From Patescibacteria group bacterium (GTDB lineage: Bacteria > Patescibacteriota > Minisyncoccia > Phycocordibacterales > UBA12079): 26,338 bases of DNA. Positions 2,836-24,964 of this stretch are shown here, piece by piece. Below the pieces are notes generated by a model. That model was not told the DNA's origin. It saw only the letters and a program-made list of their open reading frames with translations, and did not search any database. A program made the position numbers and the translations under genes. Within the stretch, counting starts at the first letter, position 1. The number at the start of each line of letters is the position of its first letter. Where the stretch lies: contig JAHIOZ010000098.1 of NCBI GenBank assembly GCA_018894995.1, positions 1-26,338 of the forward strand, in the 5' to 3' direction.

Positions 2836-3258
2836 ATGGCAAAAAAAGCAATAAAAAAATTAAAATTACAAATTCCTGCAGGTAAAGCTACACCGGCTCC
2901 TCCTGTTGGACCGGCTTTGGGACAAGCCGGAATTAATATCGGTGAATTCGTAAATCAATTTAACGGTGCGACTAAAGAAATGATGGGGGATATCATCCCG
3001 GTTATAATTTCTGTTTATGAAGACAGAACTTTTGATTTTGTTCTTAAGACTCCGCCGGCATCAAGATTGATTTTGAAAAAAATGGGAATCGCAAAAGGTT
3101 CCGGCAAAAATCTTACAAAGAAAGCTGGGACTATTACAAAAAATCAAATTAGAGAAATTGCGGAACAAAAAATGGCTGATTTAAGCGCGAATGATATTGA
3201 AGCGGCGATGAAGATTATTGAAGGGACAGCTAGGAGTATGGGCGTCGAAGTTAAGTGA
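2836..3258 (+). CDS. rplK: 50S ribosomal protein L11
   Basis: [21 protein letters not shown]...GTARSMG signature. Confidence 0.98.
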
Positions 3259-3329
3259 TTTTTTAAAAAAACAAAAATGCCGACTTAGGTCGGCATTTTT
3301 GTTTTTTTAAAAAATCACTTAACTTCGAC
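3244..3329. terminator. 41-bp perfect inverted repeat (terminator-like) overlapping the rplK 3' end
   Basis: 3244-3284 is the exact reverse complement of 3289-3329; loop TTAG. Confidence 0.8.
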
Positions 3330-3334
3330 CGCAA

Positions 3335-3388: not shown

Positions 3389-3466
3389 AACGACGAAAGG
3401 CTTTGCCTTTCGTCGTTAACGATAAAACTCTGCTATCGTCTTTGCGAGCCGAAGGCGTGGCAATCT
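3389..3466. repeat. GACG...CGTC triloop hairpin followed by a CGTC-tagged REP-like element
   Basis: AACGACGAAAGGC-TTT-GCCTTTCGTCGTT (3389-3417); CGTCTTTGCGAG-CCGAAGG-CGTGGCAATCT (3437-3466). Confidence 0.75.
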
Positions 3467-3583
3467 AGGAGTTTCGTAATAGTTTTCTTGACTCCGCCCT
3501 CGCAAATAACTATACTCAACGCAGGTTAGTAGTATTGAAAAAGGAAATTTTTTCCTAAAAAATATAAAAGAAAGGAGACTTGG

Positions 3584-5002: not shown

Positions 5003-6760
5003 ATGATTAAAAACGAATTGGAAAAAATAATAAAAAAAGCTTTGGCGGATTTGGGAATTGAAGCCGAGAGTGTTTGCTTGGATCATCCTGTTGATTTGGC
5101 TATGGGAGATTATTCAACAAATGTCGCGATGGTTTATGCAAAAAAAATCGGACAAAATCCCCGCGAACTCGCCGAAAAAATCGCCGAGAAAATCAACTTG
5201 GAAACCCGGTTTCCAAGTGAAATGTTGGAAAAGGTGGAACCGGCTGGGGCTGGTTTTATAAATTTTTATTTGAGCAAAGACTTTTTTGAAAATAATATAG
5301 CTGAAATTTTAAAAGCGGGGGAGAAATATGGAAGCAATGAAAGTTTGAAAGGGCAGAAAATTTTGATTGAGCACAGCTCACCAAACTTGTTTAAAGAATT
5401 TCATATTGGGCATATGGTTAATAATTCAATCGGTGAAGCAATTACAAGAATTATCAAAAATTCCGGTGCTGATGTAAAAGTCATTTCTTATCCGTCGGAT
5501 GTTGGGCTTGGGATTGCAAAAACTATTTGGGCTATAAAAAACTATGATATTACTGGATTAGAAAAAGATTTTTTATTTAACAATAGTAAAATACTAGATG
5601 AAAAAATTAAAATTCTGGGAGTTGCTTACACTTTAGGTAATTTAGCGTATAAAGATCACGGAAATGAAAAACAAGAAATAGATGAAATAAACAAAAAAAT
5701 TTATAACAAATCTGACGGGGAAATAAATAAAATTTATAACGAAGGTAAAAAATTAACTCTCGAACACTTCGAGATCATCGTTAAAAAGTTAGGTTCAAAA
5801 TTTGATGATTATATTTTTGAAAGTGAGGCAGGAGAAATTGGGAAAGAAATTGTAAAAGAAAAAATAGGAGAAGTTTTTGAGGAAAGCGAAGGGGCTGTGG
5901 TATTCAAAGGAGAAAAATATGGTTTACATACTCGCGTTTTTTTAAATTCTCAAGGGTTACCAACTTATGAAACAAAAGATTTAGGTTTGCTCAAGTTAAA
6001 ATTTGATAAATATCATCCAGATAAGTCTATTTTTATAACAGACAATGAGCAGAATGAATACATGAAAGTCATGTTGAAAGCAGGAGAACAGATAAATTCT
6101 GCTTGGGCAGAAAAAACAAAACATATTGGACATGGACGGCTTCGTTTTCTAGACGGGCGACTTTCTTCAAGGGAAGGTAATGTTTTGACAGCACTTAAAC
6201 TTCTCGGCGACATCCAGATGAAAGTTTGGGATAAAATGAATTCTTCAAAAAATATAACTAAAAACGAAATATCAAAAGCTTCCTTTTGTGTTTCTGGTGG
6301 GGCTGTAAAATACGCAATATTAAAATCATCAACGGGAAAAAATATTATTTTTGATAAAGAAAAAGCTTTAGCTTTAGAGGGGAACACCGGACCATACTTG
6401 CAATACACCTATGCTCGAGCGAAATCGGTTATTGAAAAAGCAAAAAAAGAAAACATCGCAACTTGGAAACCGGGTTTCCAAGTGGAATTAAGGCTGTTGA
6501 ACAGCCTTAGTGAGGTTGAAAAATTGCTTTATCGTTTTCCGGAAGTTGTTGAGAGGGCGGGGGAGGAATATGAACCGCATTATATCGCGACTTATTTGTT
6601 TGAATTGGCACAGGCTTTTAACTCTTATTATGGGAATAATAAAATTGCGGACAAAGAAGATGAAAATGCACCTTACAAAGTTGCATTGACGGAAGCGGTT
6701 GCTCAAACAATCAAAAACGGACTTTGGCTTTTGGGGATTGAGGCGCCGGAAAAACTATAA
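5003..6760 (+). CDS. argS: Arginine--tRNA ligase
   Basis: GDYSTNVAM, GAGFINF, SPNLFKEFHIGH (HIGH), GPYLQYTYAR, C-terminal LLGIEAPEKL. Confidence 0.97.
   Translation: MIKNELEKIIKKALADLGIEAESVCLDHPVDLAMGDYSTNVAMVYAKKIGQNPRELAEKIAEKINLETRFPSEMLEKVEPAGAGFINFYLSKDFFENNIAEILKAGEKYGSNESLKGQKILIEHSSPNLFKEFHIGHMVNNSIGEAITRIIKNSGADVKVISYPSDVGLGIAKTIWAIKNYDITGLEKDFLFNNSKILDEKIKILGVAYTLGNLAYKDHGNEKQEIDEINKKIYNKSDGEINKIYNEGKKLTLEHFEIIVKKLGSKFDDYIFESEAGEIGKEIVKEKIGEVFEESEGAVVFKGEKYGLHTRVFLNSQGLPTYETKDLGLLKLKFDKYHPDKSIFITDNEQNEYMKVMLKAGEQINSAWAEKTKHIGHGRLRFLDGRLSSREGNVLTALKLLGDIQMKVWDKMNSSKNITKNEISKASFCVSGGAVKYAILKSSTGKNIIFDKEKALALEGNTGPYLQYTYARAKSVIEKAKKENIATWKPGFQVELRLLNSLSEVEKLLYRFPEVVERAGEEYEPHYIATYLFELAQAFNSYYGNNKIADKEDENAPYKVALTEAVAQTIKNGLWLLGIEAPEKL
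5196..5218. repeat. 23-nt palindrome in frame inside argS (copy 1)
   Basis: ACTTGGAAACC-C-GGTTTCCAAGT. Confidence 0.85.
6461..6483. repeat. 23-nt palindrome in frame inside argS (copy 2)
   Basis: ACTTGGAAACC-G-GGTTTCCAAGT. Confidence 0.85.
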
Positions 6761-6882: not shown

Positions 6883-9800
6883 ATGGATAATGAAAAAAAT
6901 ATAGATAATAAATCCGAAACTGCCCAAAGCGAGGAAAAGATTTTGGAGTTTTGGCGGGAGAATAAAATTTTTGAAAAGTCGTTGGACTCTAAACCTTCGG
7001 ACGGGCGAGGAAAAGAAGCGCCCAAAGGTGATTTTGTTTTTTACGACGGTCCGCCTTTTGCGACTGGTTTGCCTCACTATGGGCATATTTTGGCTGGAAC
7101 AATCAAAGATATTATTCCGCGTTATCAGACAATGCTCGGCAAAAAAGTTTCTCGTCGTTGGGGTTGGGATTGTCATGGTTTGCCGATTGAAAATTTGATT
7201 GAAAAGGAACTCAATTTAAAAACTAAACAAGATATTTACGATTACGGAGTGGAGAAATTCAATGAAGCTGCCAAACAAAGCGTACTTCGTTATGATGTTG
7301 ATTGGAAAAAGATTATTCCGCGAACGGGTCGCTGGGTGGATATGGGTTCAAGTTATCAAACAATGGATACTTCTTATTCTGAATCCATTTGGCATATTTT
7401 TAAAACTATTTATGATAAAAATTTAATTTACGAAGGACATAAAGCGATGCATCTTTGTCCTCGTTGTGAGACAACTCTTTCAAACTTTGAAGTTAATCAG
7501 GGGTATAAAGATATTAAAGATTTAACGGCGACGGTGAAATTCAAACTTGATGTCGGACAAAAAATTGGTGATTTTGTTGCAGATGATAATACTTACATTT
7601 TGGCGTGGACGACTACGCCGTGGACTTTGCCTGGAAATGTTGCACTCGCAGTAAATGATGGAATCATTTATGCTCGAATTCAAAAATCAAATATCAAAAA
7701 TCAAAATGAAAATGCAAAATTAAAAAATAACGAGACATATATTGTTGCTAAGGAAAGAATTGTTGGTGTTGTTGGTGATGAAGAATACGAAATAATTGAA
7801 GAATTCAAAGGTTCAGAATTGATTGGAAAATCTTACAAACCACTTTTTGATTATTATTTAAAAGATGAAAATTTGGAAAATCGCGAGAATGCCCGCCCGC
7901 AACGCCTGAGCGAGGCTCAGCCTAGCGATGGCGGGCGGGGTTGGAAAATTTACGGTGCGGATTTTGTGACTACTGAAGATGGAACTGGAATTGTTCACAT
8001 CGCTCCTGCTTTTGGTTCTGACGATATGGAGTTGGGGAAAAAAGAAAATTTACCGTTTATTCAGCATGTTTCAGTTGATGGAAAATTCAAACCGGAAGTT
8101 GGTGATGGCTTGGCTGGGTTGTATGTAAAACCTAAAGATGATTCTGCGAATGGACAAGACCATATGTCGACCGATATTGAAATAATAAAATTGTTGGCTA
8201 AAAAAGAAGCTCTGTTTTCAAAAGAAAAAGTCACTCACTCTTATCCTCATTGTTGGAGATGTGAAACACCTCTTTTAAATTACGCGACTTCGTCGTGGTT
8301 TTTGAAAGTTACGGGAATTAAAGATGAAATGATTAAAGTTAATCAAGGTGTTAATTGGGTGCCGGAAAATATGCGAGATGGAAGATTTGGAAAGTGGCTT
8401 GAAGGAGCGAGAGACTGGGCGATTTCAAGGACAAGATTTTGGGGGGCACCGTTGCCTGTTTGGAGGTGCCAAACTGGGAAATTCGAAACCTTAAATTCTA
8501 AATCCGAAACAAATTCAAATGGCCAAAATTTAAATGTTCAAAAAAATATCGGTTGCGGGGCGATGAGGGTTGTTGGTTCAATTGCCGAGTTGAAAGAGAA
8601 TTTGCCGAAAAGAAATAATATTTTTGTGATGCGACACGGAGAGGCGGACAACAACACTAAAAATGTAATCAGTACTCAAAAACTCAACGAGCATCATTTA
8701 ACCGAGAAAGGAAAAGAGCAGGTTTTGGGGGCGATTGGAAATTTAAAAAATCAAAAAATTGATTTAATTATTTCTTCTCCGTTTGTAAGAACAGTTGAAA
8801 CAGCTGAATTGGTAGCTGAAGGTTTGGGTTTAAAAAAAGAAGAAATTATTTTTGACGAGAGAATCGGAGAAATTAATTTGGGGGATATGGACGGAAAGAG
8901 TAATAAAGATTATCACAAATATTTTGAATCCCAATTGGAAAAATTCACTAAAACTCCACCAAACGGAGAAAGTTTGACCGACTTGAAAAAACGAGTCGCG
9001 GAATTTCTTTTTGAAATTAATGAAAAGTATGAAGGCAAAAATATTTTGGTTGTAACTCACGAATATTCTTTTTGGATGATGATGACCGTTTCTGATGCTT
9101 TGACGGATACTCAATCTGTAAAAATGAAAGACGATGAAAATATTGTTCAAAATGCGGAAGTCAGAGATTTGGATTTCAGAAGTTTACCTCATAACAAAAA
9201 TTACGAGATTGATTTGCATATGCCTTACATCGATGAGATTAAATTCAAATGTGCTTGCGGTGGAGAAATGAAAAGAATTCCTGAAGTGTTTGACTGTTGG
9301 TTTGAATCGGGGGCGATGCCTTATGCTTCCAATCACTATCCTTTTGAAAATTTGGATAAATTTAATCCTGAAAAAGAAATCGGTTTTCCGGCAGATTTTA
9401 TTGCCGAGGGTCAAGACCAAACACGAGGGTGGTTTTACACTTCGCTTGTTTTGGCAACCGCTTTGTTTGGAAAAACTTCTTATAAAAATGTAATTGTAAA
9501 CGGAATGGTTTTGGCGGAGGACGGAAAGAAAATGTCAAAGAGTTTGAAAAATTATCCTGACATTAATTATATTTTGGATAAATATGGAGCTGATGCGATG
9601 CGATATTATATGATAAATTCGCCGATTGTTCGGGCGGAAGATTTGAATTTCTCGGAAAAAGGAGTGGACGAAGTTTTGAAAAAAATTATTTTGAAAGTAA
9701 AAAATGTTTATTCGTTTTATGAATTGTATAAAGATGCTTTAAAAGAAAAAATTAATCCGCAGGATAGTAAAAATGTCTTGGATATTTGGATTTTATCCAG

Positions 9801-10659
9801 ATTGAATCAGTTGAACAATGAAATCACAACAGGATTAAATAACTACGAATTAGATCGAGCTTCACGACCGATTATGGATTTTGTGGATGATTTGTCTACT
9901 TGGTATATCCGTCGTTCTCGTGACAGGTTTAAGGGTGAAGATGAAAAAGATAAAAATTTTGCTTTGGCGACAACACAATTTGTATTGGTGGAATTTTCAA
10001 AATTGATTGCTCCGTTTATGCCGTTTTTGTCAGAAGAACTCTGGCAGAAAATTGAAAATGAAAATCTCAAAATGGAAAATGATAATGTAAAATTTAAAAT
10101 TACATCGGTGCATTTGCAGGATTGGCCAAAAGCGGGAAATGTTGATGAAAAAGTTTTGGAAGATATGAAAAAAGTTAGAGGGGTTGTTTCAATGGTATTA
10201 GAAGTAAGGGCAGAAGCTGGTTTGAAAGTTCGTCGACCGTTGGGTAAAGTTACAATTTATGGTTTATCTTATGAAAAAATAGATAAACAATTGCTGGATA
10301 TTATAAAAAATGAAGTTAATGTAAAAGATGTTGTTTTTGAAAAAGGAGATAGTAGAGTAGAGCTTGATGAAAAAATTACACCCGAATTAAAAATTGAGTG
10401 GCAATACCGAGAACTTTTTAGACATATTCAAAGAATGAGAAAAGATGCCAGACTTGTGCCAAGTGATGTTGTCGGCTTAATCGTTGAAACTTCCGATGAC
10501 GGAGAAAAATTGATTAAGAAATTTGAAGAAGATTTGAAAAAAACCACTGGAATTAAAGAAATTAAATTTGAGAAAAATATTGAAGATTTTGAAAATTCAA
10601 TCGTGCAAGGAGGAATTAAAATCGATGATTTGGAATTCAAACTGAGAATTGAAAAATAA
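6883..10659 (+). CDS. ileS: Isoleucine--tRNA ligase, type 2, with an inserted histidine-phosphatase domain
   Basis: FYDGPPFATGLPHYGH, GWDCHGLP, WTTTPWTLPGN, GTGIVHIAP, KMSKS; RHG domain at about aa 577-766. Confidence 0.97.
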   Translation: MDNEKNIDNKSETAQSEEKILEFWRENKIFEKSLDSKPSDGRGKEAPKGDFVFYDGPPFATGLPHYGHILAGTIKDIIPRYQTMLGKKVSRRWGWDCHGLPIENLIEKELNLKTKQDIYDYGVEKFNEAAKQSVLRYDVDWKKIIPRTGRWVDMGSSYQTMDTSYSESIWHIFKTIYDKNLIYEGHKAMHLCPRCETTLSNFEVNQGYKDIKDLTATVKFKLDVGQKIGDFVADDNTYILAWTTTPWTLPGNVALAVNDGIIYARIQKSNIKNQNENAKLKNNETYIVAKERIVGVVGDEEYEIIEEFKGSELIGKSYKPLFDYYLKDENLENRENARPQRLSEAQPSDGGRGWKIYGADFVTTEDGTGIVHIAPAFGSDDMELGKKENLPFIQHVSVDGKFKPEVGDGLAGLYVKPKDDSANGQDHMSTDIEIIKLLAKKEALFSKEKVTHSYPHCWRCETPLLNYATSSWFLKVTGIKDEMIKVNQGVNWVPENMRDGRFGKWLEGARDWAISRTRFWGAPLPVWRCQTGKFETLNSKSETNSNGQNLNVQKNIGCGAMRVVGSIAELKENLPKRNNIFVMRHGEADNNTKNVISTQKLNEHHLTEKGKEQVLGAIGNLKNQKIDLIISSPFVRTVETAELVAEGLGLKKEEIIFDERIGEINLGDMDGKSNKDYHKYFESQLEKFTKTPPNGESLTDLKKRVAEFLFEINEKYEGKNILVVTHEYSFWMMMTVSDALTDTQSVKMKDDENIVQNAEVRDLDFRSLPHNKNYEIDLHMPYIDEIKFKCACGGEMKRIPEVFDCWFESGAMPYASNHYPFENLDKFNPEKEIGFPADFIAEGQDQTRGWFYTSLVLATALFGKTSYKNVIVNGMVLAEDGKKMSKSLKNYPDINYILDKYGADAMRYYMINSPIVRAEDLNFSEKGVDEVLKKIILKVKNVYSFYELYKDALKEKINPQDSKNVLDIWILSRLNQLNNEITTGLNNYELDRASRPIMDFVDDLSTWYIRRSRDRFKGEDEKDKNFALATTQFVLVEFSKLIAPFMPFLSEELWQKIENENLKMENDNVKFKITSVHLQDWPKAGNVDEKVLEDMKKVRGVVSMVLEVRAEAGLKVRRPLGKVTIYGLSYEKIDKQLLDIIKNEVNVKDVVFEKGDSRVELDEKITPELKIEWQYRELFRHIQRMRKDARLVPSDVVGLIVETSDDGEKLIKKFEEDLKKTTGIKEIKFEKNIEDFENSIVQGGIKIDDLEFKLRIEK
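7891..7938. repeat. GC-rich 48-nt imperfect palindrome in frame inside ileS
   Basis: CCCGCCCGC...CTGAGC-GAG-GCTCAG...GCGGGCGG; encodes ARPQRLSEAQPSDGGR. Confidence 0.75.
8611..9180 (+). other. Histidine phosphatase (PGM/CobC-like) domain nested in IleRS
   Basis: R584-H585-G586, SSPFVR636T, E663, VVTH726. Confidence 0.85.
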
Positions 10660-10675: not shown

Positions 10676-10772
10676 CGTCTTTGCGAGAAAACAGGCGTGA
10701 AATTTTGGCGTCTAAAATGGACGGTCGTCCATTTTAGACGCCAAAATTTCACGCCTGTTTTCGTGGCAATCC
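10676..10772 (+). repeat. CGTC-tagged REP-like element enclosing a 37-bp perfect inverted repeat
   Basis: CGTCTTTGCGAG-[74 nt]-CGTGGCAATCC; arms 10687-10723 and 10726-10762. Confidence 0.85.
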
Positions 10773-10797
10773 GGAAACTTTCGCAGTTAAAACTTTA

Positions 10798-10873: not shown

Positions 10874-11572
10874 ATGATTTACAGACACAAACATTTTCAA
10901 TTGGACACAAAAAGCAGAAAAGTTTTTGACCAAAACGGGAAAGAATTGATGATAACTGGTAATGCTTTTAGATTGCTTGCTTTTCTTTGTGAACACAAAA
11001 ATGCAACAATCACCGAAATAGGGGAATATTTGGATCACGCTAAAGAATATACCGAAAATCATATTCGTCAGTACAGATACAAAATAAAATCAATTATAGG
11101 AGAAGAAATCATCGATTATAAAAATTCAATTTATTCAATTGTCGGTGATATTGAAACCGTTGAAAAACTCAACTTGGAACTCCGAGTTCCAAGTAAAACA
11201 GGAAAAGACGACCGTATTACGGATTTATTACACCCTAATAGTTTAATATTTGGCATAAGAATGAAAAATATCAGCAAAAAACCGGCGATAATCGTATCAA
11301 TTTTATTATTACTCACATTTTTCCCGTGGGCTTATGGTTATTATACGGTTTTGCGATGGGCGGTAAGTTTGGTTTCAATTTATTACATAATCGGTTTTTA
11401 CAGCAAAACAAAAGTTTTTGATTTCAAAATCTGGACACTTGTTGCCATCGCCGTCCTGTTCAATCCAATCGCTCCGATTTTTTTGCAAAGTAAAACAGTT
11501 TGGGGATTTTTTGACATCATAGTCGCCGGATTTTTCGTTTATTTGATAATTAAAACTAAAGAATTGAAATAA
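10874..11572 (+). CDS. N-terminal OmpR-like winged-helix domain fused to a DUF6804-like membrane domain
   Basis: FQLDTKSRKV...FRLLAFL...IRQYRYKIK wHTH pattern; C-terminal AYGYYTVLRW...LFNPIAPI...W..D hydrophobic domain. Confidence 0.65.
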   Translation: MIYRHKHFQLDTKSRKVFDQNGKELMITGNAFRLLAFLCEHKNATITEIGEYLDHAKEYTENHIRQYRYKIKSIIGEEIIDYKNSIYSIVGDIETVEKLNLELRVPSKTGKDDRITDLLHPNSLIFGIRMKNISKKPAIIVSILLLLTFFPWAYGYYTVLRWAVSLVSIYYIIGFYSKTKVFDFKIWTLVAIAVLFNPIAPIFLQSKTVWGFFDIIVAGFFVYLIIKTKELK

Positions 11573-11903: not shown

Positions 11904-12590
11904 ATGAAAAAGGAAAATTTTAAAAATGCTTATCAATTCAAAGTTTTGTTAGAAGGAGCGAAACCGCCGATTTGGAGAAGAATACAAGTTCCTGAAAATT
12001 TTAATTTTGAAGATTTGCACAAAACGATTCAACTGGCAATGGGTTGGTGTGATTGCCATTTACATCAATTTATAAATGTTGATCCAAGTCAAAATTATGG
12101 AAATAGAAAATTTATTAAAATACCGCACCCTGATGATTTTGATTTTGGCTCTGAAAAAACTTTTGATGAAAGGAAGGAAAAAATTTTTGATTGGTTTTTT
12201 TTGGACAAAGACGGTAAATCTAAGATGAAGTATGAGTATGATTTTGGCGATGGTTGGGAACATATGGTTACTCTTGAAAAAATTTTATCTGAGGAGAAGG
12301 GTGTTAAATATCCCCGTGTTGTAAAAGGAAAGGGTGCTTGCCCTCCTGAAAATGTTGGGGGTATTTGGGGTTATATGGATATTGTGGAAGCGATGAAAAA
12401 TCCAAAAAGCAAAGAAAGTCAAAAGTTTTTTCAAGAAATCTATGGCAGTTTTAAAGAATTTAAAGATTGGATGGAAGAGTTTGCTTGCGTTGATTTGGGT
12501 GAATTTGACCCAGAAAAATATGAAATTGAAGACGATGGTTTTTTGGAGTTAAAAGGGTATATTGGCATGAACGATTATATTGGGGAATAA
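11904..12590 (+). CDS. Plasmid pRiA4b ORF3-family protein
   Basis: IWRRIQVP...LH..IQ.AMGW.D.HLH.F, YEYDFGDGWEH, ACPPENVGG.WGY. Confidence 0.88.
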   Translation: MKKENFKNAYQFKVLLEGAKPPIWRRIQVPENFNFEDLHKTIQLAMGWCDCHLHQFINVDPSQNYGNRKFIKIPHPDDFDFGSEKTFDERKEKIFDWFFLDKDGKSKMKYEYDFGDGWEHMVTLEKILSEEKGVKYPRVVKGKGACPPENVGGIWGYMDIVEAMKNPKSKESQKFFQEIYGSFKEFKDWMEEFACVDLGEFDPEKYEIEDDGFLELKGYIGMNDYIGE

Positions 12591-12651
12591 TTTTAAAAAA
12601 TATTAAATTTGCATCATAAAAAATTTTACTTAAAAAACCTTTATTTTGTTT

Positions 12652-12926
12652 GTAACCACTCACACCTATAAACACCAAACTCATCAAAATCGATAACTGA
12701 CCTGGATCGCCACACTTTTCCGCTTCGCTCCGAAGTTCGCGAAGACGAAATGCCTTCGGCATTTCGTCGACGGATTTTCTTCTAGAAAATCCGTCTTCGC
12801 GAGCATGACACCATTTTTAAGTTTTTTGAAAAACAAAGTTTTTCAAAAAACTTAAAAATGGTGTCATGCGTGGCGACCCAACACTTATTAATTGGTCGTG
12901 GGAAGTCAACAAGTGTGAGTGGTTAC
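12652..12926 (+). mobile_element. MITE-like element copy A (275 bp)
   Basis: 14-bp TIR GTAACCACTCACAC/GTGTGAGTGGTTAC; flanks TTTTGTTT/CTTTGTTT (7/8 match). Confidence 0.85.
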
Positions 12927-13030
12927 CTTTGTTTACCCACACACCTAAAATTTTAGGTGTACGGGTTTATGAAAAAGGAATAAGGAAAATATAGAAACAC
13001 AGAAATTGAGGAATTTAGAGATAGAGAAAC

Positions 13031-18178: not shown

Positions 18179-18463
18179 GTAACCACTCATACTTGTTGAA
18201 TTTTCATAACTAATTAATAAGCGATGGATCGCCACGCATGACACAATTTTTAAGTTTTTTGAAAAACTTTGTTTTTCAAAAAACTAAAAAATGGTGTCAT
18301 GCTCGAGAAGACGGATTTTCCAGAGGAAAATCCGTCGACGAAATGCCGAAGGCATTTCGTCTTCGCGAACTTCGGAGCGACAGCGGAGAAGTGTGGCGAT
18401 CCAGAGTAACATCGTCAATTATCGATTTTAATGAGTTTGATGTTTATAAGTGTGAGTGGTTAC
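18179..18463 (-). mobile_element. MITE-like element copy B (285 bp), inverted relative to A
   Basis: TIRs GTAACCACTCATAC/GTGTGAGTGGTTAC; flanks TTAGAGAA/TTAGGGAA (7/8); colinear with A. Confidence 0.85.
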
Positions 18464-19864: not shown

Positions 19865-20012
19865 AGAATTAAGAATTAAGAATAACGAATTATGAATGAT
19901 GAATCTAGAATACGACGACGGATTTTGCTTCGCAAAATCCGTCGTTTAATAGTTTAAAAACCTAAAATTAAAAAACGACCAAATGTGGCGACCGTCACAT
20001 TTGGTCGTTTTT
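19865..20012. repeat. 7-nt-period tract plus two hairpins
   Basis: AGAATTA-type units at 19865-19911; hairpins at 19915-19945 (TTC loop) and 19971-20012. Confidence 0.7.
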
Positions 20013-21022: not shown

Positions 21023-21222
21023 GTAACCACTCACACTTATAAACATCAAATTCAATAAAATCGATAACTGACATTAGTTAGTCTGGATCGCCACACTTCT
21101 CCGCTTCGCTCCAAATTTCGTCGACGGATTTTCCTCTGGAAAATCCGTCTCTGCGAGCGATAGTGTGGCAGTCTAGAAATTTATTCATAATCCGTAAGGA
21201 TTTAACAACTGTGAGTGATTAC
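21023..21222 (+). mobile_element. MITE-like element copy C (200 bp)
   Basis: Left TIR GTAACCACTCACAC, degenerate right TIR CTGTGAGTGATTAC; perfect 8-bp TSD GATAACTA. Confidence 0.85.
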
Positions 21223-22437: not shown

Positions 22438-22521
22438 GTGTGGATTTTGGGTGGTTTTTTTTGAACGCCCCACCCTCTAAAGAGGGTGGGGCGTTCAAAA
22501 AAAACCGCCCAAAATCCACAC
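22438..22521. repeat. 40-bp inverted repeat with one G.T pair, between the AI-2E gene and metG
   Basis: 22438-22477 pairs with 22482-22521; loop TAAA. Confidence 0.8.
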
Positions 22522-24744: not shown

Positions 24745-24964
24745 GTAACCACTCACACTTATTAAATTTATACGATTATTGAAATTGCTCGTATATTTGA
24801 TATAGTTAGTCTGGATTGTCGCGCTATCGCTCGCAGAGACGGATTTTCCTTTGGAAAATCCGTCGACGAAATTTGGAGCGAAGCGGAGAAATGTGGCGAT
24901 CCAGACTAATTAATATCAATTATCGATTTTAATGATTTTGATATTTATAGGTGTGAGTGGTTAC
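24745..24964 (-). mobile_element. MITE-like element copy D (220 bp), inverted relative of C
   Basis: 14-bp perfect TIR; perfect 8-bp TSD CTGTTTTT. Confidence 0.88.

Follow-up and report, generated by a model that had tools for sequence, protein, structure and literature searches.

The 26,338-nucleotide stretch of DNA analysed here (hereafter the window) is contig C110 of a genome bin from a Patescibacteria group bacterium, and it contains at positions 12700-12880 a nest of repeats that lies inside a miniature inverted-repeat transposable element (MITE). This element, copy A (12652-12926), is one of four copies in the window, and the nested segment is probably the cargo of a non-autonomous DDE-type transposon, the cargo itself being built of smaller repeats, including repetitive extragenic palindromic (REP) units, with exchangeable palindromes. 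The source bin (G000) comprises 0.89 Mb in 186 contigs, has a G+C content of 36% and is 80%-complete; the four DNA runs that match the window are groundwater metagenomes, and no RNA run is listed for it.

Structure of the MITE and its copies in the window

Copy A lies on the plus strand, is 275 bp long, has terminal inverted repeats (TIRs) at 12652-12665 and 12913-12926, and is bordered by an 8-bp duplication, TTTTGTTT (12644-12651) and CTTTGTTT (12927-12934), that matches at 7/8 positions. Its interior opens with a REP unit on the minus strand (12702-12746), which consists of a CGTC tag, TTCGCGAA, a 21-nt imperfect hairpin loop and TGTGGCGATCCAG. Two hairpins come next: hairpin 2 (12744-12768; 11-bp stem, loop TTC), whose outer foot is the CGTC tag of the left unit, and hairpin 1 (12769-12795; 12-bp stem, loop TCT), whose 3' foot, CCGTC, serves as tag for the right unit. 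The right REP unit, on the plus strand (12793-12881), is made up of GTCTTCGCGAG (12793-12803), a palindrome that occupies the loop, and C plus GTGGCGACCCAA (12869-12881). This palindrome is perfect over 65 nt (12804-12868; 31-nt arms, loop AAA) and is called pal67 below, which counts the closing G-C pair. With that pair its arms reach the 32 nt given in the original prediction (12803-12834 and 12838-12869), and they are 100% complementary in copy A and 94% in copy B.

The left-hand block CTGGATCGCCACA...CCGCTTCGCTCC and the right-hand block GCGAG..GTGGC had been described as inward-facing halves of a REP in all four copies. Both blocks are indeed present in every copy, but they belong to two complete, inverted units rather than to halves of one: since the left block is a unit on the opposite strand and the right one spans 12793-12881, the MITE interior is a head-to-head dimer for which hairpins 2 and 1 form the spacer.

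Copy B (18179-18463, minus strand) has the layout of copy A, with its palindrome at 18236-18302. Copy C (21023-21222, plus strand) carries hairpin 1 only, has the 7-nt loop CGATAGT in its right unit and is flanked by a perfect 8-bp duplication, GATAACTA; copy D (24745-24964, minus strand) is laid out like copy C and also has a perfect 8-bp duplication, AAAAACAG in element orientation. As predicted, hairpin 1 (GACGGATTTTCY-nnn-RGAAAATCCGTC) is found in every copy (A 12769-12795, B 18310-18336, C 21123-21149, D 24838-24864) and the additional hairpin 2 (GACGAAATGCC-TTC-GGCATTTCGTC) in A (12744-12768) and B (18337-18361), the hairpins of A and B are bracketed by TCGCGAA (12736-12742 in A) and TTCGCGA (12796-12802 in A), and the loop-closing pair of hairpin 1 is T-A in A and C-G in B. 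Copies C and D, said to lack both the palindrome and hairpin 2, do lack the palindrome and a full hairpin 2, but they keep the 3' half-stem ATTTCGTC of the latter. The 27 nt missing from them comprise half of hairpin 2 and the head of the left unit, and the retained half-stem indicates that the loss of hairpin 2 there is a plain deletion, the sole cargo difference of this kind.

Both hairpins recur in the genome. Hairpin 2 has 13 exact-stem copies, with loops GAA (8), TTC (3) and AAA (2), while hairpin 1 has 24, which display 16 different stem tops and keep Watson-Crick pairing in 23/24 cases; one copy in the window (19917-19943, stem top GC-TTC-GC) stands alone, outside any MITE or REP unit. 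When folded as single-stranded DNA, the segment 12700-12882 reaches -77 kcal/mol, compared with -21.9 +/- 3.1 for its shuffles (z = -17.8), and in this fold both REP tails pair and close a branched structure.

Distribution of the MITE

A search of the source genome for the terminal repeat (GTAACCACTCACAC and its complement) found 37 sites at up to two mismatches, compared with 4 in shuffled genomes, and pairing of these TIRs yielded 13 complete MITEs of 183-528 bp with 14-bp TIRs. Target duplications of 8 bp are perfect in six of the 13 (C and D included) and match at 7/8 positions in five (A and B included). None of the copies has coding capacity, so that the element combines the terminal inverted repeats, target duplication, small size, absence of an open reading frame (ORF) and multiple copies that characterize a MITE.

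In a comparison of 41 genomes (the source genome and 40 relatives), the MITE arms matched only the source genome, and the interior did match relatives. A contig from the JGI metagenomes (L046, 1452-1724) carries a MITE with this TIR whose 8-bp duplication is AATACTAA and whose interior is REP-free and unrelated. The occurrence of this TIR with another interior, together with that of REP cargo in genomes without the arms, indicates that the arms are a vehicle able to take other cargo and that the cargo exists arm-free. The earlier suggestion that a TIR element serves as vehicle for a second class of hairpin elements is supported: the inner units number about 119 in the genome, 79 of them on their own, and they occur also in relatives in which no MITE arms were detected.

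Candidates for a parent insertion sequence (IS) were considered and set aside. An unpaired TIR on contig C5 proved to be another MITE, the matches of the 18-nt TIR to GTDB representatives were nine single, chance-like matches in unrelated phyla, and the sole match among JGI contigs was the MITE on L046. Contigs on which the genes bordering copy A recur unchanged derive from the source samples and end inside the MITE, so they reveal no polymorphism; the gene adjoining copy C is not on record. The gene directly upstream of copy A (11904-12590) encodes a protein of the PRiA4_ORF3 family (Pfam E = 3.9e-55), which is often associated with mobile elements.

Anatomy and distribution of the REP units

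REP units were defined by the conserved blocks GTCTTTGCGAG (L) and GTGGCAATCCAG (R) bordering a palindrome. The source genome has 126 L-R pairs, of which the 119 with at most 130 nt between the blocks form the set described here. In each unit a CGTC tag adjoins the base helix TTGC/GCAA; the helix leads through an internal loop, GAG/CGTG, to the variable loop X (5 to ~100 nt, in this genome usually a perfect palindrome), and a TCCAG tail completes the unit, whose conserved ends are TYTGCGAG and CGTGGCAATCCAG. The tag preceding L reads CGTC in 95/119 units and TGTC in 19/119, and the tail fits the trinucleotide CCA, whose first C is kept in 115/119. Loop spacings fall into classes of ~7-10 nt (14 units), 22-23 nt (26, the class of the left unit of copy A) and 40-95 nt (68 long-loop units). 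The units of relatives G002 and G023 are 28-33 nt in total and, like the 14 short-looped units here, lie within the 20-40 bp of published CGTC-tagged REPs, a size that the two units of copy A (45 and 89 nt) and the 68 long-loop units exceed.

The base helix occurs in three covarying haplotypes, TTTGC/GCAAT (33 units), TTCGC/GCGAT (32) and TCTGC/GCAGT (18), with few mixed forms. Its first two pairs are both T-A in the main type and include C-G covariants in the two others, and the helix is continuous over only 4-5 bp before it meets GAG/CGTG. Most units (79) are solitary, and the dimers are head-to-head (12), tail-to-tail (3) or tandem (5); inside MITEs, one or two GACG...CGTC hairpins stand between the units, and the hairpin feet supply the tags. 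Units are intergenic in 110/119 cases, in both orientations and in every gene context, with a mild excess on the strand of the upstream gene (55 vs 37), and no T-tract lies 3' of them. A perfect GACG...CGTC hairpin was dismissed as an obligatory part of the unit, being present at only ~29% of units. In 16/119 units a 4-bp direct repeat, CGTC, flanks both ends, an enriched feature that may be the head of a decayed neighbouring unit and is not relied on here.

The strict motif was found in 8/41 genomes (the source genome and seven relatives), patchily within a genus. In G002 and G023 its loops are short (CGAAG and GCGAAGC, for example), and in G016 they consist of medium palindromes. G005, G006, G008 and G012 have a variant tail, GAAGCAATCCAG, and a contig of G008 (C67; loci L021 and L027) has dense arrays of tandem and nested variant-tail units, duplicated ~1.15 kb apart. 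In a wider sample of 400 other genomes across the phylum, the motif gave no match apart from an isolated one in a single genome.

Two solitary units also lie in the window, both on the plus strand. One (10677-10774) lies just 3' of ileS, outside any MITE, and its loop is filled by a perfect palindrome of 74 nt that differs from pal67; this unit had been considered as positionally conserved, but the DNA downstream of ileS differs in five congeners. The other (3436-3468; loop CCGAAGG) is short and lies downstream of a gene that ends at 3258.

REP units within protein-coding genes

Nine units of the source genome lie within long ORFs. The hosts confirmed by Pfam are alanyl-tRNA synthetase (two units), MurB (two units, with palindromes of 66 and 69 nt), leucyl-tRNA synthetase, Fpg and an Asp/Glu racemase, and their domains are split around the inserts. 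When MurB was aligned with its counterparts from five congeners, none of the counterparts had either insert; the second insert runs from L through R and is read as SSLR...RGNPA. Relative G002 has two short in-frame units in ileS, initially taken for copies downstream of that gene, where the source genome has none. Judged from these alignments, whole REP units are insertions that sit in frame in essential genes at places where congeners have nothing.

Other repeats were observed in these genes. MurB of G006 (L063) has an additional insert of ~50 residues at a third site, one that is unused in the source genome. The ileS gene of the window contains a GC-rich hairpin (7891-7938) that resembles the REP loop content of relative G003 (C5:20022-20101) and may, as it is preceded by TCGCGAG, be a decayed unit. 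In the same gene, a ~52-nt A/T-rich stretch (10048-10102) matches 23 places in G006 and a few in G001, G003 and G004 (79-92% identity), and it may represent another dispersed repeat that lands in genes.

Perfect palindromes in the REP loop and their probable exchange

The palindromes of the 68 long-loop units fall into 29 sequence families when clusters are drawn at 85% identity. Across their loop stems, 2405 positions are Watson-Crick pairs, 75 are G-T and 335 are other (the last two counts include loop and edge positions), and in most units of 66-81 nt no more than one position is unpaired. Stems so nearly pure in Watson-Crick pairs mark a DNA palindrome and not a selected RNA stem.

The palindrome of copy A, pal67, has 18 copies in the genome, all at the CGAG/CGTG junction of a REP unit, and 14 of these are identical over 65 nt. 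The frames around them include two helix types and nine tail variants, with unrelated outer flanks, and the loop, taken relative to the frame, is AAA 12 times and TTT six times. Mean pairwise identity among the pal67 loci is 98.8% in the arms and 100% in CGAG and CGTG, falls to 90.5% in the rest of L and 76.6% in the rest of R, and is ~30% beyond.

The same junction has different occupants in different MITEs. Among the complete copies, the right unit holds a 7-nt loop in five, pal67 in A and B, a second palindrome in those on C44, C77, C167 and C177, and a third in that on C121; pal67 is also found at this junction in truncated copies on C14, C72 and C162, and the MITE on C125 has a fourth palindrome, in its left unit. 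Deletion from one ancestor cannot yield differing palindromes, or none, at one junction in homologous MITEs. The greater uniformity of pal67 relative to its host REP units, combined with the presence of different palindromes at the same junction, indicates that the palindrome layer has its own history. A comparison of arms and cargo across the genomic copies found that they do not track each other: the left arms of the MITEs on C44 and C158 are identical once the TIR is set aside, while their right arms are only 65% alike and their X differs, and across copies the similarity of left arms is uncorrelated with that of right arms (r = -0.05).

Two other palindromes in the window were observed. 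That at 22438-22521 has 41-nt arms in a degenerate frame, GTCTTTGT..GACAACCCA, and at least seven further palindromes of the genome have the same tip (AGAGGGTGGGGCGTTC and its complement) at their centre. That at 3239-3334 has 46-nt arms, the left of which takes in the last codons and stop of the gene ending at 3258 and the right of which is its reverse complement; it looks like outward growth into unique sequence.

Maintenance of palindrome symmetry

Several observations bear on how symmetry is kept in a genome that has 171 palindromes with arms of at least 20 nt. Copy B has in one arm of its palindrome a change that copy A has in both, and in the MITE on C144 the interior forms one perfect palindrome (38-nt arms) at a place where other copies are asymmetric. 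Loops are found reverse-complemented between copies in hairpin 2 (TTC/GAA), hairpin 1 (TCC/GGA) and the palindrome (AAA/TTT). Arm homogenization and spacer inversion are published marks of intrastrand template switching (PMC8604942, PMC8794818). The proposal that structure is under selection or repaired finds support in the pairing retained by hairpin 1, the covarying base helix, the near-pure palindromes and the arm change between A and B, with covariation seen in hairpin 1, the REP base helix and the palindromes.

A search for SbcD (TIGR00619) gave no match in 21 genomes of the group, among them a single-contig genome that is 99% complete; as a control, the same search was positive in 13 of 14 well-known genomes.

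HUH/Y1 genes and a second REP

The source genome has four HUH/Y1 genes (on contigs C71, C83, C107 and C170) that score above the Pfam Y1_Tnp cut-off and whose best NCBIfam match, below its own cut-off, is 'REP-associated tyrosine transposase' (RAYT). The Y1 gene on C107 (1520-2246) contains three in-frame copies of a 23-nt palindrome, ACTTGGAA..TTCCAAGT, and has one more upstream; because of these copies in and beside it, the gene is probably the cognate RAYT of this palindrome. There are 21 copies of the 23-nt REP in the genome, 17 of them in genes, and the window has three (5196-5218, 6461-6483 and 11172-11194). Twice, on C54 and C76, a long palindrome of a CGTC unit has this REP exactly in its middle, and sister palindromes have the same outer arms and other tips. 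Hairpins in hairpin loops would be expected if single-strand-specific enzymes insert into single-stranded loops.

Origin of the nested repeats

The nesting that had been described as a two-tier mobile system is present and has at least three tiers (MITE, REP unit and palindrome), with a fourth elsewhere in the genome; as for mobility, it is the distribution of the inner layers that points to their movement. In the reading that we consider probable, the MITE would be moved in trans by a transposase absent from the assembly, while the REP units and palindromes would disperse in single-stranded hairpin form and enter targets that are likewise single-stranded, for instance a hairpin's CGTC foot or a REP loop, probably through HUH/Y1 (RAYT-like) enzymes. 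Intrastrand template switching would then keep arms identical and flip loops, and long palindromes would be tolerated by a lineage in which SbcD was not detected. A bolder form of this proposal, which we advance tentatively and regard as rather doubtful, is that the REP unit is a docking frame: its single-stranded loop, together with the CGTC feet of other hairpins, would be favoured landing sites for hairpins moved by HUH/Y1 enzymes, and palindromes would be cut from and pasted into REP loops as non-coding cassettes through recognition of structure and not of sequence, like that of attC sites. Hairpins would in that case accumulate in hairpins, from the 23-nt REP to the long palindrome, the CGTC REP and finally the MITE.

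Several points weigh against the transposon reading and its inner mobile layers. Neither the 80%-complete genome nor GTDB representatives nor JGI contigs yielded an autonomous IS or a transposase with these TIRs, and CGTC-type units flank none of the four Y1 genes of the source genome. Across relatives there is no clear correlation between Y1 genes and units: G023 has units and no Y1 match, and many others have Y1 genes without strict units. CGTC-tagged REPs are held to lack a dedicated transposase (PMC3733652). In addition, short REP units fold no better than shuffled sequence, so support for the base helix comes from covariation among only three haplotypes, which may partly reflect descent.

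The palindromes could also be without mobility of their own, the main rival to this reading and one that we consider unlikely. On this account only whole REP units, or whole MITEs, were transposed, ectopic gene conversion homogenized the 65-nt palindromes while their short flanks drifted, and MITE differences arose by homologous recombination with other REP units. The in-gene insertions are indeed whole L-X-R units, six of the ten pal67 units of the TTCGC/GCGAT type have one common tail, and the MITE copies are clearly recombinant. Moreover, 65 nt is long enough for conversion and the 11-13 nt of flank are not; conversion confined to the palindrome could produce the contrast in identity without any movement of cassettes. 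However, conversion between like palindromes cannot replace a different palindrome or a 7-nt loop, and it is precisely there that homologous MITEs differ; pal67 occurs in two covarying helix types, one medium palindrome of G016 sits in frames with different heads, and to exchange X, recombination would need to be resolved inside 4-13 nt on either flank.

Two simpler accounts fare worse. That the copies are deletion derivatives of one ancestor, with no selection on structure, accords with the 27-nt loss in C and D, betrayed by the half-stem ATTTCGTC; as a general explanation it is extremely improbable, given the unrelated palindromes at the same junction of homologous copies, the covariation in hairpin 1, REP helix and palindromes, and the abundance of inner units outside MITEs and in genomes without detected arms. 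These findings contradict the condition under which the earlier interpretation was to fail, namely that cargo differences are simple deletions lacking covariation. It is also very unlikely that the units are functional signals of the host, such as 3' stabilizers, terminators, protein-binding sites or DNA-uptake sequences, spread by selection for that function. Their mostly intergenic location and mild strand excess, the conservation of the motif across genera with distinct 'dialects', and the roles in termination and mRNA stabilization with which the literature credits REPs would all fit such signals. Against this stand their occurrence in both orientations and every gene context, the lack of a 3' T-tract, the near absence of G-T pairs that sets their stems apart from selected RNA stems, in-frame copies in essential genes that are missing from orthologues, and patchy presence within a genus. 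In Rfam, with gathering and E-value thresholds, only tRNA-His passes and the long hairpins give sub-threshold, microRNA-like chance matches, and an uptake sequence would need no covarying paired flanks.

Significance and relation to known systems

REPs are among the oldest unexplained repeats of bacteria, and the genome studied here is an unusually legible case, one in which the conserved part of the repeat has shrunk to a small frame and the loop is a slot for diverse perfect palindromes. A single palindrome can be followed across diverged frames and copies of the carrier MITE, and the CGAG/CGTG junction and CGTC tag provide concrete sites at which to ask about cleavage and joining by HUH enzymes. 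The data also illustrate how far hairpin repeats have spread in tiny-genome Patescibacteria without detected SbcD, where even aminoacyl-tRNA synthetases and MurB carry units. If the docking-frame proposal is true, a mode of transposition from hairpin into loop would be running freely in this lineage.

The units fit the anatomy of the CGTC-tagged REP superfamily, save for the interrupted stem and expandable loop, an assignment made from the published description. To our knowledge, no enzyme that mobilizes this superfamily has been identified. The account that describes the superfamily (Di Nocera, De Gregorio and Rocco 2013, PMC3733652) counts Neisseria dRS3, along with Rickettsia RPE-4 and RPE-6, among its families. 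Members have an unpaired CGTC tag (TGTC or CCTC allowed), complementary A-T in stem positions one and two, a short unpaired tail fitting CCA and a mostly head-to-head dimeric arrangement, with two stem-loops in some dimer spacers, in-gene copies and dimers that sometimes lie within larger palindromic repeats. The units described here are alike in their tag, CCA-type tail, predominance of head-to-head among dimers, two-stem-loop spacers, in-gene copies and lack of a flanking transposase, and also in that dimers can lie within a larger repeat. Published families have continuous stems of 8-9 bp, loops of 4-5 nt and a total of 20-40 bp, although families with other loop lengths are noted (PMC3733652); here the 4-5-bp base helix gives way to an internal loop, and the loop extends to ~100 nt with 29 families of perfect palindromes in a cassette-like arrangement. 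CGTC repeats are reported from microorganisms of five phyla, and Patescibacteria are not among the taxa named in the sections consulted (PMC3733652).

Like REPIN-RAYT systems (Bertels and Rainey; bioRxiv 10.1101/2021.07.10.451892), these repeats have two inverted REPs that form one long hairpin with a variable spacer, are mostly extragenic, lineage-restricted and long-lived, and share the genome with HUH/Y1 genes, one of which has the second REP (ACTTGGAA..TTCCAAGT) in and beside it. They differ in that no Y1 gene is flanked by CGTC units and that there are four Y1 genes instead of one per REPIN population. In addition, it is the unpaired frame that is conserved here and the paired part that varies, whereas the conserved part of a REPIN is the REP palindrome and its variable part the spacer.

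The in-gene units recall the Rickettsia palindromic elements (RPEs), which insert in frame into protein genes. In both cases hairpin repeats lie in frame in essential genes and are read through as extra peptide loops, and the present elements are distinguished by another host phylum and modular loop content. RPE-4 and RPE-6 have been equated with CGTC families (PMC3733652).

The likeness to integron attC sites is one of architecture only: a conserved paired base, an unpaired centre and a terminal hairpin of very variable length and sequence. The function of attC relies on a folded single strand. No R''/R' core sites (RYYYAAC/GTTRRRY) are visible in the units, which are scattered in both orientations instead of forming arrays and whose variable part is non-coding, with no gene cassettes; no search aimed at intI was made.

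Bacterial MITEs with structured cargo are known, for example the Correia elements of Neisseria, which have terminal inverted repeats, a target duplication and no coding sequence, and IS1397 and ISKpn1 provide precedent for insertion into the loop of a palindromic unit. The present element differs from these in its 8-bp duplication, its TIR starting with GTAACC and its lack of an identified parent IS, and the loop occupants are non-coding palindromes. Template switching at quasipalindromes (PMC8604942, PMC8794818, PMC7202029) shares with this system arm homogenization, spacer inversion and growth of inverted repeats, but it is a mutational process and not a means of dispersal, and it leaves identical palindromes at 18 loci unexplained.

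We found no published account that joins the candidate phyla radiation with palindromic elements or Patescibacteria with miniature inverted-repeat elements, nor a description of an expandable REP loop that serves as a slot for many perfect palindromes with traceable exchange. The kinds of element and process that this slot brings together are themselves known: MITEs, REPs, RPE-like insertion into genes and template switching.

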